A DNA stretch of 64,000 nt. Origin: a virus. Lineage: Duplodnaviria > Caudoviricetes. A program made the translations under genes and the position numbers. The stretch spans positions 96,001 to 160,000 of IMG/VR virus record IMGVR_UViG_3300025150_000002, one strand, 5' to 3'. Under the pieces are notes generated by a model. The model did no database searches. It saw nothing but the letters and a program-made list of their open reading frames with translations, and had not been told where the DNA came from. Positions within the stretch are counted from its first letter, which is position 1. Every line of letters begins with the position of its first letter. Positions 1 through 8,747 of the stretch are shown here, piece after piece.

Positions 1-115
1 ATAACTGTTGATGCGAGAACTAGTCGAGGGTCTACAGCACTATCGGCTGCATCACAGACTAATTGATGCACACTAGAGGTTGACCTCGTAAGTGATCAGT
101 GCGTATGCTCGGTAA

Positions 116-1228
116 ATGCAGCGCGTCGTTCCTATCAAACTCAATGAAGATGTTGATCTTAGGGCGACGATTGAGTCGTTTAGACTCGTTCAGCAGCGCG
201 TCTCGGATCTAGCCTTTGCGACCGGGTCATGGGATTCGGCGATCGCGCTCCACCGCGTCGCCTACCCACATGTCAGAGGAGCGCTCAAGTCGCAGCTCGT
301 CTGCACAGCGATACGCCTTGTGGCCTCCGATTACGCTCGGCTTCGGCGGCTCAGAAAGCGTATCCACGGCGCGATTCACTTCAGCAAGCCGAGGGCTCTG
401 TTCCTGATCGGGAAGGGGAAGCGGGACGCGTGCCCGCCTCGAAAAGAAACCATACGGATCTGGACCGTGGCCGGGCGGAAAGACATCGGCTTTACCATTC
501 CGAAGGAGTTCGAGAGCTTGCTGAAACGGGTCACGTCCTACGACACACTAGCTGTCAGCATCAAAAGGGGACGACTCGTCGCCTCGCTCTCGGTGACTCT
601 CAAGGCGCCGGATCGCAAGGGCTCGCGCCCGGCCGGCGTTTCGGCAGGTCTCAGAAACGATATAGCAGCAGTGGACGCCTCCGGACGAGCGCTCCGGATC
701 GTCACAACAGCCCAAACAGTGATGGAGGAGACAACCCAGAAAACCAAAAAAAGACTTGAGCGACGTCTAGCTGCACGAAAGGCAGATGGGTACGAAACAC
801 GATCCGTGCGACGTGCCCTCAAACGGCTGAGCAGACGGCGTCACCTGCGAACCAGAGCGTTTTGCCACGTAGCGGCAAACGAGCTGATCCGCTGGTTGGA
901 TCTAGATGTGATCGTGGTAATGGAAGATCTTAGGCGGCCGCCACCGTCGCGGAGGAAGTCTTCCAGCAGTAACATCCCGCACTACTACGAAGGCCTTCGA
1001 CGGAGGCTTGAGGAGAAGTCGGAGGCTGCGGCTATCCCGGTCCACTATGTGAGCGTCACCGGTAATGCTCGGAGGTGCTCGGTCTGCGGCGACGCCGGCA
1101 CGATCGGCAGACGCGTGTTTAGTTGCGGGTCCTGCGGCAGCAGTGGTCCACTGAGCAAGAATGCCGCACTGAACATCAGGAACAAATTCACGGTCACACG
1201 GCCGTGGGCTGCTGTCAACCAGCCCTGA
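116..1228 (+). CDS. tnpB: TnpB-family (IS200/IS605) protein with inactivated RuvC, TldR-like
   Basis: TnpB layout: RuvC-I region GVSAG (normally GxDxG), RuvC-II VMEDL, CxxC..CxxC zinc ribbon (CSVCG..CGSCG), RuvC-III SKNAALNI (normally DxNAAxNI). No tnpA adjacent within the window. Confidence 0.88.
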   Translation: MQRVVPIKLNEDVDLRATIESFRLVQQRVSDLAFATGSWDSAIALHRVAYPHVRGALKSQLVCTAIRLVASDYARLRRLRKRIHGAIHFSKPRALFLIGKGKRDACPPRKETIRIWTVAGRKDIGFTIPKEFESLLKRVTSYDTLAVSIKRGRLVASLSVTLKAPDRKGSRPAGVSAGLRNDIAAVDASGRALRIVTTAQTVMEETTQKTKKRLERRLAARKADGYETRSVRRALKRLSRRRHLRTRAFCHVAANELIRWLDLDVIVVMEDLRRPPPSRRKSSSSNIPHYYEGLRRRLEEKSEAAAIPVHYVSVTGNARRCSVCGDAGTIGRRVFSCGSCGSSGPLSKNAALNIRNKFTVTRPWAAVNQP

Positions 1229-1272
1229 AGCTCGACAACGGGTAAGTGGCCTTGGTCACAGTTGATGAAAAG

Positions 1273-1968
1273 CTACTTCTGTCGCCAACGTGCTGAAAAC
1301 ACGTTGCGCCCCTTTTCGGTAACGGAGCTTGACTTTGATAGAGCTGCGACCTCGGCGTCGAGCCGGCCCCAAATGATCGTTCGAGGGAACCCGCCTAGCC
1401 CGTATTCAAGCCGTTGCGCAAGGAAGGGAACGTCGGCTAGAACCTTGCCATTGATCTTGGGGAGCGTGGCGTCGAACGCCTGAGGTGTCCTTCCGATCGT
1501 AGCCAGTTGTGACCTGATCTCGATCATCTCAGCGAGTCGAGCGCGGCGGTGAAAGTCAGTCTCTGACTCGGATGACGGCCTTACGAGCATATCGCCGCTA
1601 AAACCATCAGTTACTGCTGGAATGGTATCTAGTGTCCACGGGCTGTGTTGAGATAGAACACCAGCTACGTCGTCTCCACTAGAGATCCAAATCAGGCTAC
1701 GGTCAGCCACTATGCTCCCGTAGTCGATCTCGTTGACTCGGGCCTCGACCTCGAATCGGTCCTTGGCGACCTCCACAACAACGATGGACTTCTTGTAGAT
1801 GTCGTACCAACCACCATCATTGGGAATCAACGCGACGACCCGGTCACGTAGTCTGTAGGCGAGCTCCTTCGCGGAAGACTGCATTGCGACCTTACCGGCC
1901 GCTGGAACGCTAGTCTTTAGCTGCTCGATCTCTTTGACGAGCTCTTTGTCGTCAATCCAGAACCGCAC
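1273..1968 (-). CDS. hypothetical protein, possibly virion morphogenesis (neck/head completion)
   Basis: 231-aa ORF directly downstream of the portal gene; function inferred only from position. Confidence 0.6.
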   Translation of the reverse strand: MRFWIDDKELVKEIEQLKTSVPAAGKVAMQSSAKELAYRLRDRVVALIPNDGGWYDIYKKSIVVVEVAKDRFEVEARVNEIDYGSIVADRSLIWISSGDDVAGVLSQHSPWTLDTIPAVTDGFSGDMLVRPSSESETDFHRRARLAEMIEIRSQLATIGRTPQAFDATLPKINGKVLADVPFLAQRLEYGLGGFPRTIIWGRLDAEVAALSKSSSVTEKGRNVFSARWRQK

Positions 1969-1971
1969 GAG

Positions 1972-4900
1972 CTAGTGCCGACCGTGTCCCCGCCCACGGC
2001 CCTGCGGTACCAGCTTGCCGTTACCGTTGCGAGACATGTAGGTGTGCTTGAGCTCTCGAATGAAGTGTTCGGTCTGGGTCAACCTGTGGGCGAGCGACTT
2101 GTTCTCGATCATGGCCTTCCGGAGAGAGTCTTGGATCTCAGCGTCGCGAGCCCTAGACTCCCGGTCCAGACGCTCTTCCAGACGCCGAGCCTGGTCATAG
2201 CGCTTCCATTCATTCTGGGTGTTGGGCCGCCCCGCCACTCCAGGGGGCGGTCCGATGTCCATCGGGGGCGGTGGACCTCCAGCCCCACCGGCGAGGGCTG
2301 GGCCCTCCATAGGCAGCCCGCCGGGTCCACCCGCACCACCACCACCACCGCCTGCGTCGCCCATCAGCTTCTGCTGCTCAGCCTGCTTCTTCATGTCCTC
2401 TTCGCGCTGCTTCTCGATCACATCAATCTCGTCGTCACTGAGCTTGAGGATTCGCTCCTGGATGTAGCGCATAGACACGAAAGGCTGGACGCGCGTGGCG
2501 AAGTCAGCCCGAGCGTTCTTGATCTCGTTGTGTGCCAACTCGTAGATCCCCGACGGAACCGTCATCATGACCTGAAGGTCTTGGTTGAACGGGTTGATAC
2601 CGCGCGAAGCCAGGTCGATTTGGATCAACCGACGAATAGTGTTCTTCATCTCGCGCTGAATACCCATGGTCACACGGGCGGCCCGAACGTCTTCGAACGA
2701 GAGGATCGTCTTAGGAGGCGGAGCATCGTCCTGACCGAGGTAGCTGCGCGGAACCTTGAGCACGCCGTGCAGCTTTCGGGCGAAGTACTCGACATCCTCT
2801 GTGGCCTGGTAGTCGGGACCCTGTAGTACTTCGACGCGGGCCAACTCGCGGTTCTCGCGGACTGCAATGAAGAAGTCCTGCATGTTGTCCATCGGGTTGT
2901 AGCGCATGTCCAGGCGCTGCGTGTTGTGGACAAACACACCAGCGGTCAGGGCGAAGTTGTGATAGTCCTCCACGGTGATGTCGTAAACATCCTCAAACCC
3001 GTCCGGAGTTACGCTGACCACTGTGTGGTTGTTCTTGCCGGCACCGACCAGTCGCCTTTCCTTCTTCTTCTGAGGCCCGCTCTTCCGCTCACCAGTTCCT
3101 GCAACCTGCTCCTTGTAATCGGCGAAGCTCTTGAAACCGCGCCGCTTCAAAAGCGCGGTCCAGCAGCCGCGACTCAACTTGGGCTTGATGGTTGTAGGCA
3201 GGTCCGCATAGATCCGAATGAAGTCCTCTTGCCCGTTGAGCCACGCGACCATGTCCTGGGACGTGATGGTCGGGTCGTTGTGCAGTTTCTGGTCCACCAT
3301 CGCGAAGACCAGGTTGTAGAGGCAATCAGCCCGCTCTGTCTTAGTGGCGGCCGCCTTTTTGTTGGCCTCGCTAATCTTCTCAGGATTCTCCTCGCGCCAA
3401 TCACGGATACGCCCGTATAACTCCTGCTTGAACACCGGATCATTCTGGGCCCTCTCTTTGAGAGCCTTCCGGGCCGCCTGGAGATGAATGGGGTGCCGAC
3501 CACCGGCGTGGTCTCCGGGGGTGATCGGTTCCAGATTTGACGGGTGATTGTTCTCCTTGTTTTCGTCACGATGATGGACATGAAGACCCTTGGCCTTGTA
3601 GTCCGGGTCAATCAGCTCCTCTGTGACCATTTGATGGACGTAGCGCTGCTTACCAAGCCCCGTGTCCTTGTACTTCCAGTAGTGCTGCGTCTCCTTGCTA
3701 CCGCGAGACAGGTAGAGGGGCATGAGCGACTCACCCTTGACGAGGTCTTGGGCCTGCTTGTAGGAGCCGTTTCGCAGCAGGAAGGGGTGGTCTCCTGTGC
3801 ATCGAACGATGGCGCCGCTGTCTACCACGACCCGGTAAACGGCCTTCTTCTTGCCTGAGAGGCCAGCGGCCGTGATCTTGCCGGGAACTACCCTGTGCCG
3901 CTTTGTATCGTAAGAGAATACGTAGTGGTGCTTCCCTTCCTTAGCGAGCCTGGGCACCTCCTCCGCCAGATCGCGCATCGACCTGTCCTTACCATCGAGA
4001 CAGGTGACCGGGGTTTCACCGGTGAGGCAGCGCGGGTTCACGAGCTTCTGCTTGCGCATGTCCTGCTTGGCCTTACGCAAGAACGAGTCGACCTTGTCCG
4101 AGGGTATATCAGTGACGTCGATGTAAAACGCGAAGCGTGCTGGCGCTCTTGTGTTATGGACACAAACCCCGTCTGCGATGAAGTTGTGCTCTTCGTCTTC
4201 GACGCCGATGTCCCAAATATCATCGACGCCGACCACTTCGACTCCACGCAGGGGCTCTGTCAGTGGCTGCTGCTTGAACGTGATGTCCATGCAGTAGGAC
4301 GTAGTGCCCTTCAGCGGCTGGGTCGACCCTGCGATGGTGCGGCCACCTTCGCGGGTTCGCTCGCGCACGAAGGTGACTACCAGTCCTAGCTGCATCGCGA
4401 GCTCGCGCACATCTTCGAGGAGTTGCTTGTTGCACAACTCGAAGCGCGCCTTTTCAAATCGGGTCTTGCGGCCCTCCCTGCGCGGGATGATGTGGGCGTC
4501 CGCATCAGCGAGACCACGGATCATCGCGAGCTTGATCTCTGGACTCGCGCGGAACACCCACTCAGGAAGGCGCTTGTCGTGGGCCCCCGGAATGAATCCA
4601 TTGAGAAGCATGAACTCGGCGAACTTGCTTGAGACAAATGAGTAGGCCCCGAGGCGGTAGTCCTGGTCATTGACCAGCTTCACACCTGGAACATAGCGCT
4701 CGAACAGGCCCTTGTAGCGATCGTTGATTTGGTCGTCCTCGCCCAGGGCAAATCCGATCTCGTTCTGTGAGACGAACCCGCCCTTTTGAGTCCTGGTGGT
4801 GATGAACCCGTCACCAAGCATAAAGCCCCACCACCGGGCGAAGTCTTCGTCGACTACATCTGGGACAGTGACTCCCTTTACCGGGATTCCGCGATCACCG

Positions 4901-6720: not shown

Positions 6721-7452
6721 CTAGCAGGACGGGAGCTCCAGAAACACACCTGAAACTGCCAACGAGCCCATAGATCGGACAGATGCGGTGAATACTTCTT
6801 CCAACGAGCCTGGTGTGACACGCGTCACCTTGTGGTTCCGCCGACCGCGCTTTCCGACGATTTTGGCCATCTTCGGTGATGCGGCAGCGCACTCATCCAG
6901 GATGTCTTTCGCTAGATCGAGCGCCTTGATGATCTTATTCCGGTGACGCTTTTTAGCCCGATTCGGGTTGATGATGATATTCAGGTTGTCGGGGTGGTAG
7001 TGCTTTCGGTTCTTGTCGATGTGCTCGACTGTGGTACCTGGGCCGAGCGGGTGCCCGAGCTTCCACTCGGCGATAAGTCTAGCGATTTTCCGCTTTACGT
7101 AACGACCAGGGATCCTGTAGGTCGGATAACCATAGACATCTTCTTCGAGGTAAAGGGGGAGCAGCGAGTCGCCTGGGACTAGTTCAGGGGGCATCTTCCG
7201 TTCGCCAGACCGCATGACGAATCGGGATGATGGCGAGACCTGAAGCTTCGCTCCGTCGTCGAGCACGACCTCGAACAGTTGCTGAAGTCCGATCGACTTA
7301 ACCCCGCCCACTTCACCTAGAAAGAAGGTCCCGGAAGACCACACAAAGGCCGTCTCGGTGTAGTCAGGGTTTAGGACAGTTCGATTCGACAATTCCGAGA
7401 TTTTGGTTGGGCCAGACACCGTCTCGATGCACATGTCGCCGCGCAATCCCAC
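6721..7452 (-). CDS. free-standing degenerate intein (Hint plus HNH-like), no exteins
   Basis: Block A-like (M)GLRGDM lacking Cys1, block B SPSSRF lacking TxxH, HNH-like VEHIDKNRKHYHPDNL, block F/G-like NHKVTRVT..EVF..VSGVFLE lacking terminal HN; own GTG start with GAGG upstream. Confidence 0.72.
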   Translation of the reverse strand: MGLRGDMCIETVSGPTKISELSNRTVLNPDYTETAFVWSSGTFFLGEVGGVKSIGLQQLFEVVLDDGAKLQVSPSSRFVMRSGERKMPPELVPGDSLLPLYLEEDVYGYPTYRIPGRYVKRKIARLIAEWKLGHPLGPGTTVEHIDKNRKHYHPDNLNIIINPNRAKKRHRNKIIKALDLAKDILDECAAASPKMAKIVGKRGRRNHKVTRVTPGSLEEVFTASVRSMGSLAVSGVFLELPSC

Positions 7453-7460
7453 CGAACCCT

Positions 7461-8747
7461 CTACAGTCCTGCCATCAAAATGGGCTCACGTGTGAGCTCA
7501 TCCTGGCTCTCCGGCTTCACCGTTTGCTCAGCCCCTGACGCATCGATCACCGTGAGGCCTCTCGCCGATATCACCATCCGGAACGGGGTGATCCCGACGT
7601 ACCTCCTGCCGGCTCCCTTCTTCAAGTAGGCAACCGTAAGATGTGGAATGTAGTTCGGGCGAGTCGGCGGTCTGGAGTTGGGCAGCTTGGCGATTTTCTG
7701 GTGAAGCTCTCGAATCGAGTCGCCGATGACTTCGATGTAGAGTACGTCGCGCTCTTCGTGCTCGAAGATGTTGAACGTGCCCAGCATGGCCCTGATTGGC
7801 CTGCCGTAGTCCTGAACGATTTGCTGGATAGCTGAGAGATCTCGCTTGTCGGCGCCGTAGTAGACCGTCACATGGGGCCGGTGCTCCAGCTTCAGGATGT
7901 TGTCCTCAGGGATGTTCTTCTGGACCCAGCCAGGAATGCGAACTCGCAGGTAACCGAAGTCGACCTGGGTCTGCAGGAAGTTCTCGTCCTGCTGCTCACG
8001 CTCGAACTGAAGGTCCTCGAATAGACACCCCTCCGTCAACTCAGGCTTGTGGCGAAGGTGGGCTACGAGCTCCAGGAACACCTTACGGACGATAGAACCA
8101 GAGCGACTCATTTCGCGGCCTGCGTGACCGCGCCCAAGAATCACGTTAGCCGCAACTTCGGCAAAGGCCTCCGCAGGGTCTGCGTTCGCGTATTTGCTGG
8201 GGAAAGAGTCAGACACCTTCTTCGTCTTCAGCCACCCCCTGAACAACTCGGGGTCACTCCCATAATGCTTGTTGAAGAAGAACCAAAGGCTCGACTTCTC
8301 TGGACGACTCTGCACGACTTTCGCCAGCGCGTCGGCGGCTGCCGGGTCATAAGGTCTCCCGACGACCTCACACAGAGTTGCCCACAGTTCACGGGCGTCG
8401 TCACTCATGTGCTTAACCCATATTCTGTGCATCGTCTCATGGACGATGGTCCACAGATAGTCAGCGGCTCCACGAATAGGTGGGTAGAAGATGACTGACT
8501 TGTCATCTTTTGGAAAGTAGCGCCCGTTGGCCCGCTCATCGTCCTTTCGGTGAACAATCTCGATCTTGCCGCCGAAGTCCTTGTCCGAGAAGCCGAACGC
8601 GCGCATCTTTTCGACGGCTACGTAGATCGCGTTGAGGAACTGTCCTACCTCCTCAGACGGTACCTCACCGTCAGATCCCGGCTGCATAGGTCCGGGTGTG
8701 CGGACGCCTGGCGTGAGCAGTCGGAACGCTGAGATAATTCGGTCCAT
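7461..8747 (-). CDS. zincin metallopeptidase-like domain fused to 2H phosphoesterase
   Basis: HExxH (VHETMH) plus SKYA..DPAEAFAE in the N-half; two HxT motifs (PHVTV, PHLTV) in the C-half. Confidence 0.78.
   Translation of the reverse strand: MDRIISAFRLLTPGVRTPGPMQPGSDGEVPSEEVGQFLNAIYVAVEKMRAFGFSDKDFGGKIEIVHRKDDERANGRYFPKDDKSVIFYPPIRGAADYLWTIVHETMHRIWVKHMSDDARELWATLCEVVGRPYDPAAADALAKVVQSRPEKSSLWFFFNKHYGSDPELFRGWLKTKKVSDSFPSKYANADPAEAFAEVAANVILGRGHAGREMSRSGSIVRKVFLELVAHLRHKPELTEGCLFEDLQFEREQQDENFLQTQVDFGYLRVRIPGWVQKNIPEDNILKLEHRPHVTVYYGADKRDLSAIQQIVQDYGRPIRAMLGTFNIFEHEERDVLYIEVIGDSIRELHQKIAKLPNSRPPTRPNYIPHLTVAYLKKGAGRRYVGITPFRMVISARGLTVIDASGAEQTVKPESQDELTREPILMAGL

Follow-up and report, generated by a model that had tools for sequence, protein, structure and literature searches.

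TldRs are RNA-guided DNA binders that number 506 proteins in several independent clades, three of which have named associations (oppF, fliC_P and csrA), and their guide RNAs (gRNAs) combine a scaffold of ~97-100 nt with a guide of 9-16 nt and a seed of ~6 nt (10.1101/2023.11.30.569447). The roles of most TldR clades are unclear, with function demonstrated only for the fliC- and oppF-associated clades (PMC13622181, Xiao et al., 2026). Here we describe a locus of a large, T4-like groundwater phage that, judged by its sequence, looks like a new branch of this group. The window that we analysed is a stretch of 64,000 nt from an IMG/VR phage record of 203.5 kb (89% complete), of which it covers bases 96001-160000; the locus consists of a gene for a 370-amino-acid (aa) TnpB homologue, its own promoter and a predicted adjacent gRNA. 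The identity of the protein as a nuclease-dead TnpB homologue and the domestication of its gene are secure, and we think it somewhat more probable than not that the locus is an immobilised, domesticated TldR-type TnpB-omegaRNA module.

Following the operational definition of TldRs by Wiegand et al. (10.1101/2023.11.30.569447), we find at the sequence level a TnpB fold, substitution of two of the three catalytic RuvC residues (Asp-Glu-Asp, D-E-D) throughout a clade of close relatives (hereafter the dead clade), neither tnpA nor identifiable transposon ends, and a predicted adjacent gRNA whose scaffold descends from an omegaRNA. As in TldRs, there is no recognisable left end (LE), the neighbours are non-transposon genes that form a new clade-specific neighbourhood, and the nearest kin are TnpBs with an intact triad; the fliC_P clade, too, is phage-borne. 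The locus differs from described TldRs in where it branches in the TnpB tree (named proteins matched it at 25-40% identity only, and none of them bears a TldR name), in its carrier, a T4-like phage of 200 kb in which no sign of lysogeny was seen, in its place in a neck/tail module rather than beside a regulated cargo gene, and in keeping the zinc ribbon and the C-terminus. Its predicted guide, moreover, is still the ancestral transposon flank, namely the stop region of the neighbouring gene; no match to it flanked by a transposon-adjacent motif turned up at a promoter in the phage genome or in one relative.

With the canonical IS200/IS605 TnpB-omegaRNA systems (ISDra2 etc.; 10.1101/2023.03.14.532601) the locus shares the protein architecture, an omegaRNA lying across the gene's 3' end and right end (RE), a guide taken from flanking DNA, and a promoter layout common to its intact relatives. 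In contrast to an active IS200/IS605 TnpB, the catalytic Asp residues are lost and the D-E-D triad is not intact, there is a single copy, found in one context in relatives, with neither TnpA nor a recognisable left-end hairpin, and its syntenic position is fixed over deep divergence. T4-like phages also carry free-standing homing endonuclease genes of the seg/mob type. These are likewise intergenic insertions between conserved structural genes, with their own promoter, present in some related phages and absent from others, and with the junction of a rival genome as the ancestral target. Unlike seg/mob genes, the element described here would rely on RNA-guided recognition, and since the nuclease is lost in the dead clade, homing by cleavage is not possible there.

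The 370-aa protein matches Pfam PF07282 (Cas12f1-like TNB) over residues 292-354 at 4e-9, above the cut-off, and NCBIfam guided_TnpB at 4.6e-18, under that model's cut-off, which together mark it as a distant TnpB. Its AlphaFold2 model has a mean predicted local distance difference test score (pLDDT) of 89.3, and the best full-length Foldseek matches are ternary complexes of Cas12f and TnpB, with E-values from 4e-16 (Cas12f) to 2e-13 (ISDra2 TnpB). When the protein is aligned to solved TnpB/Cas12f chains, its GVSAG coincides with the RuvC-I motif GVDLG, its MEDL with VEDL and its SKNAALNI with DENAALNI, so that Ser176 takes the place of the RuvC-I Asp and Ser347 that of the RuvC-III Asp. These are the two substitutions named in the original prediction, a reading of the letters alone, and the RuvC-II Glu and the zinc ribbon that it described as intact are indeed invariant in a 60-sequence alignment. 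The open reading frame (ORF) is full length, and the lack of a nearby tnpA, also noted there, extends to the whole 203.5-kb record, which contains no Y1 transposase (PF01797) or serine-recombinase (PF00239) TnpA and only one TnpB-like copy.

A protein search returned 66 relatives of the 370-aa protein. Both RuvC Asp residues are absent from every one of the 34 full-length proteins at 57-71% identity, and the Glu is always kept; loss of the two residues is therefore a clade-wide property, and the check on their conservation suggested at the outset came out positive. Within this dead clade of 34 proteins the RuvC-I position is Ser or Ala and the RuvC-III position is Ser in 33 and Gly in one; Asp occupies the RuvC-I position in the outer-clade TnpBs and the RuvC-III position in both sister and outer clades. 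The dead clade is monophyletic with a support of 100/100, its sister group (99/95) lies at 46-50% identity, and beyond the two comes a large clade of conventional TnpBs with an intact triad, at 36-40%. Pairwise ratios of non-synonymous to synonymous substitution rates (dN/dS) in the dead clade have a median of 0.107 (range 0.07-0.19) while synonymous sites are near saturation. Purifying selection that has held over such divergence means that the gene is not a decaying insertion sequence (IS), and the relaxed selection that had been named as the outcome fatal to the original prediction is thus contradicted.

The sister clade is mixed. Members P0038, P0040-43 and P0045 keep D-E-D, as do L144 and L145, and the RuvC-I residue is Ser in L008 (5139-6260), Asn in L009 (5735-6856), L010 and L059, and Gly in L060 (1-1110); in all five of these altered members the protein and the RNA persist, and so does the RuvC-III Asp. 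This distribution shows that no fewer than three separate lineages have lost the catalytic site at this locus, at least two of them in the sister clade. Note that the sister Ser and Asn forms, being closely related, may go back to a single loss. The repeated RuvC-I losses fit a locus at which binding without cutting is selected, or at any rate tolerated.

Two further features of the protein family deserve mention. Residue 182 (window 659-661) is a conserved Asp or Glu (NDIA/NEVA) in the dead clade alone and Ala in the other clades; this acid may be a leftover metal ligand or unrelated to catalysis. It begins the next strand of the AlphaFold2 model (strands 171-177 and 182-186), so in the model its side chain probably lies on the face opposite to that of residue 176. 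In subclade P0028-P0035 of the dead clade a one-residue deletion has turned the second zinc knuckle from C-x-x-C into C-x-C, and the zinc ribbon may be decaying there.

The 3' sequence quoted in the original prediction is present. Nucleotide conservation of the last 15-20 codons and of the 45-bp spacer behind them is far above that of the rest of the gene. This segment can form four hairpins (1190-1205, 1206-1225, 1230-1243 and 1246-1259), after which AGUUGAU follows. Within it, GGCCGTGGGCTG encodes RPWAA in the dead clade but, through a 1-nt indel in a hairpin loop, KAVGC in the sister clade; since the same nucleotides are kept in different frames, the constraint acts on the nucleic acid and not on the protein. 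In the hairpin alignment 99.4% of cells are paired and six pairs have changed on both sides (a number reached in 0 of 500 shuffles), and the pairing collapses when the partners are slid. Covariance model R1, built on an 89-nt element, gave 63 matches behind tnpB on 62 of 65 intact-relative loci (E 2e-18 to 1e-2), with whole stems altered in a compensatory manner, and it scores the window scaffold at 103 bits. As R1 matches stand behind nearly all intact TnpB relatives, we conclude that the 3' element is the omegaRNA scaffold of the family, fully preserved. The original prediction had read this region as a degenerate omegaRNA or right end and had proposed a covariance-model search: the search located the element in the intact relatives and the assignment holds, but 'degenerate' has to be dropped given the score on the very model that matches those relatives. 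The right end survives only as this RNA scaffold. An Rfam search of window 1-3000 returned no family, only noise at E>1.

In intact relatives, conservation ends directly after ...(A/G)TTGAC, and the copies of one IS that occurs in three contexts diverge one base past TGAC. This break places the predicted start of the guide at 1267, in line with the start near 1267, antisense to the 3' end of the convergent gene, that had originally been proposed: guide bases 7-9 complement the stop codon of the neighbouring gene, here called dn231, and the later bases are antisense to its last codons. The 6-nt spacing and the first nine guide bases, NAAAA(G/U/A)CUA, are common to all phage loci, dead and sister. 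The later bases are variable yet pyrimidine-rich because the C-terminus of dn231 reads RWxQKK. Judged by the left-end flanks of intact relatives, the transposon-adjacent motif (TAM) probably lies within TCCAT, with NCCAY as the predicted family-wide form; this reading comes from the one multi-context IS and from alignment by eye.

Upstream of the gene lies the sole sigma-70-like site within window 1-2000. Its TTGACC and AGTGCGTAT blocks do not vary among the dead-clade and sister loci, and intact outgroup elements share the layout CACTAG...TTGAC...TAGTGGTATAAT...ATG. With 6 nt from the end of the promoter to the ATG and no Shine-Dalgarno sequence visible, the tnpB-like mRNA is probably leaderless, judging from the predicted transcription start. 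The GC-rich LE hairpin of intact relatives was not recognisable by eye upstream of the gene, no + strand terminator stands behind the scaffold, and among public sequencing runs there was no RNA run with the locus sequence. Just upstream of window base 1, between the start of the gene next to the insert and the tnpB-like promoter, is a conserved inverted repeat, CATCA-N5-TGATG (L002:9984-9998), followed by the conserved blocks CTAGTCGAGGG and GATGCACACTAG; the repeat and the blocks may be operators or a late promoter of that gene, which is gp15-like (see below).

Table 1. Positions of the locus and of the genes next to it, in window coordinates
Feature	Position	Strand	Remarks
Sigma-70-like promoter	80..109	+	TTGACC (80-85), 18-nt spacer, TATGCT (104-109)
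tldR-like gene	116..1228	+	370-aa TnpB homologue, ATG start, TnpB/Cas12f fold, full length
Ser176 codon, place of the RuvC-I catalytic Asp (GVSAG)	641..643	+	from solved-chain alignment
Glu270 codon, RuvC-II catalytic Glu kept	923..925	+	invariant in 60/60 aligned sequences
Zinc ribbon CxxC...CxxC, Cys321, 324, 337 and 340	1076..1135	+	four Cys invariant in the 60-sequence alignment
Ser347 codon, place of the RuvC-III catalytic Asp (SKNAA)	1154..1156	+	from solved-chain alignment
Predicted omegaRNA/gRNA scaffold (at least this much)	1184..1266	+	~83 nt; covers the last 15 codons and the stop
Predicted guide GAAAAGCUACUUCUGU	1267..1282	+	16-nt length assumed by analogy
Neck-region gene dn231, 231 aa, convergent	1273..1968	-	stop and last codons complement the predicted guide
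T4-type portal, 1569 aa	1972-6681	-	two Intein_splicing matches; LAGLIDADG and HNH matches
Free-standing HNH endonuclease gene	6721-7452	-	directly beyond the portal; kept in relatives
2'-5' RNA ligase superfamily gene	7461-8747	-	beyond the portal; kept in relatives

The gene stands alone on the + strand: genes for a 976-aa tail sheath, a 100-aa protein and a 290-aa protein precede it on the - strand, and dn231 and the portal gene follow it on the same - strand, so the structural-gene context described in the original prediction is real. The protein atlas links the 290-aa protein to T4 gp15-like sheath stabilisers, as a lead only. The order sheath, ~100 aa, ~290 aa, tnpB-like gene on the opposite strand, ~231 aa and, usually, portal recurs in five dead-clade viral loci, in the deepest dead-clade members and in the sister clade including its D-E-D-intact members; the comparison of synteny in relatives that had been called for thus gave the same neighbours in all dead-clade and sister loci examined. 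In a search with the gp15-like protein, loci at 64% identity or more (>=64%) all carry a tnpB-like gene, and in six loci at 44-49% the 231-aa and 290-aa genes adjoin on one strand, ~45 bp apart and with no insert. Fixed synteny on the one hand and the uninterrupted junction in distant phages on the other show that there was one insertion followed by vertical inheritance.

These comparisons of loci show that one IS200/IS605-type tnpB landed ~6 nt behind the dn231 stop codon, upstream of the gp15-like gene, in an ancestor of these T4-like groundwater phages, and that the gene has been inherited vertically since. The analysis likewise shows that the transposase partner was lost, that two of the three RuvC catalytic residues were lost in the dead clade, and that the protein, its own promoter and the guide-RNA scaffold are under purifying selection. 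An insert-free variant was sought in contigs of four DNA runs mapped on the locus; cover was patchy, and no joint that skips the gene was seen. In the insert-free loci L134-L139 (~3930-4000) a conserved TTGCCGCATAGAAT stands 10-12 nt ahead of the gp15-like start codon and may be a late-promoter element of this phage group.

Among the neighbours, dn231 has no Pfam or PHROG match, and the protein atlas gives weak leads only (YomN or HK97 gp10-like). The great length of the portal gene is due to the inteins within it; portal ORFs of relatives range from 760 aa to >1560 aa and differ in intein load. The genome as a whole is crowded with homing endonucleases and inteins.

Under the reading of the locus as a domesticated TldR-type module, host RNA polymerase would transcribe the gene from the sigma-70-like promoter into a leaderless mRNA, the protein would bind the 3' part of that mRNA (1184-1266 plus the guide from 1267), and the complex would bind, without cutting, DNA in which a TAM lies next to a GAAAAGCUA... 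match, acting as a roadblock or repressor. We would put a repressor function at roughly even odds. The original prediction spoke of a 'domesticated RNA-guided regulator': domestication stands, on the strength of purifying selection and the fixed site, and the regulator part is something that we infer, with no TAM-flanked target found in this or a related phage genome. Our leading guess, itself a minority one, is that the target would be a rival co-infecting genome, with a host site second. We make it because a guide match beside non-scaffold DNA is known only at the uninterrupted neck-gene/gp15 junction, which was the homing target of the nuclease-active ancestor; in insert-free phages a few tens of bases separate that match from the gp15-like start and its conserved upstream motif.

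The search for a second target covered the 203-kb genome and a related phage of 134 kb. Counts of 12-18-mers taken across 1255-1320 were at chance level in the 203-kb genome; at these chance-level counts, the 13-nt best match, inside a 635-aa ORF at genome 4985, and a 12-mer match at genome 187747 are both in coding sequence and were rejected. The guide-core 8-mer AAAAGCTA occurs twice in the genome against 2.8 occurrences expected. The second of these occurrences is a 9/9 match to GAAAAGCTA at G000:C1:193548-193556, just 3' of a tRNA-like gene, and was judged a chance match (~0.8 expected). This copy near 193556, the only other one in the genome, reads TAG-CTTTTC on the opposite strand. Guide scans anchored on CCAY or TTGAY found nothing above shuffled guides except the locus itself, and the guide of the 134-kb relative matches only its own locus. 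The guide search against the phage that had been proposed is thus carried out for these two genomes, and it yielded no second TAM-flanked site.

Several points weigh against a module that is aimed at DNA. There is no TAM-flanked guide match beyond chance elsewhere in the 203-kb genome or in the 134-kb relative. The guide is an ancestral flank, and the RWxQKK-stop coding constraint of the neighbour explains much of its conservation; as the A-rich hexamer after the dn231 stop codon is present in insert-free phages too, conservation of the guide is in our assessment no separate argument for targeting. The insert-free junctions, which come from distant phages, match 6 of the first 9 guide bases and have no CCAY adjoining, and these phages are too diverged for a base-by-base junction alignment to fix the TAM. 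The TAM itself (NCCAY) is put forward tentatively.

The same observations can be read with the RNA at the centre, in which case an early transcript made of the scaffold and an antisense tail that crosses the stop codon and enters the neck and portal genes would be a cis-antisense regulator of late mRNAs, and the protein would only stabilise or process it. The gene is convergent with late structural genes, the scaffold has no + strand terminator after it, the neighbour's 3' end has, by construction, its perfect antisense in the guide, and no DNA target was found in the two phage genomes scanned. The antisense relation weighs little, as any RE-flanking guide is antisense to its neighbour. The WED/REC part of TnpB holds the guide-DNA duplex. 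The whole protein is conserved here including this N-terminal part, and a chaperone alone would need neither WED/REC nor the zinc ribbon; we consider the antisense explanation improbable.

A long shot, in our estimation, is the idea that the phage uses the dead TnpB-omegaRNA against other phages as an allele-specific weapon, one that blocks tail production by insert-free co-infecting relatives. The guide would be frozen on the neck-gene/gp15 junction and the complex would sit beside the gp15-sheath late promoter; as the insert splits this junction in the carrier, the complex could bind only in insert-free co-infecting relatives, and the repeated loss of RuvC residues at the locus would reflect selection for binding without cutting. 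A preprint on a Cas12 'hacker' (10.1101/2025.01.20.633832) concerns active phage Cas12 and was set aside as not relevant to a dead TnpB locus.

We regard it as quite unlikely that the protein is an RNA-guided recruiter of another activity (recombination, transcription activation or packaging) rather than a repressor. Exaptations of dead TnpB/Cas12 relatives to such ends have been described (PMC13472631; 10.1101/2025.08.27.672191). Cas12k, which brings in transposases, and dCas12f, which brings in sigma factors, would be precedents, and the association with virion genes instead of a regulated promoter would suit such a role. However, no candidate partner gene travels along with the tnpB-like gene: its neighbours are ordinary neck and tail genes, which are adjacent to each other in insert-free phages as well.

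Prospects are poorer still for a selfish homing element that remains a nuclease, with cutting restored by other acidic residues (e.g. residue 182) or by a partner nuclease. The dead-clade acid at 182, where outer clades have Ala, the wealth of homing endonucleases and inteins in the genome and the partly D-E-D sister clade at the same locus all speak for it. Nevertheless, two of the three catalytic positions are gone, nothing acidic replaces the RuvC-III Asp (PxSKNAA), the side chain of residue 182 probably faces away from the residue 176 face in the model, and any single DED mutation abolishes cleavage in TnpB and Cas12 (10.1101/2023.11.30.569447). Finally, a functionless IS remnant, unlosable between essential genes, could account for the single copy, the missing TnpA and the unrecognisable LE hairpin, but it is hardly credible given a dN/dS of ~0.11, an ORF intact in every relative seen including the 34 full-length dead-clade proteins, and a conserved promoter and RNA, where a dead remnant would gain stops and deletions.

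Taken as a domesticated TldR-type module, the locus offers a natural series at one genomic position that runs from TnpBs with an intact triad through three independent RuvC-I losses to a deep clade that has lost two residues; one guide-RNA scaffold and one set of first nine guide bases are common to the whole series. Because the series stands at one locus, the step from a homing nuclease to a nuclease-free binder can be compared between close relatives. With a 370-aa protein and a scaffold of ~83 nt, it is also a compact test system. As a module of this kind embedded among the virion genes of a large T4-like phage it would be a first, and this location raises the question of whether RNA-guided binding may play a part in phage-phage competition.

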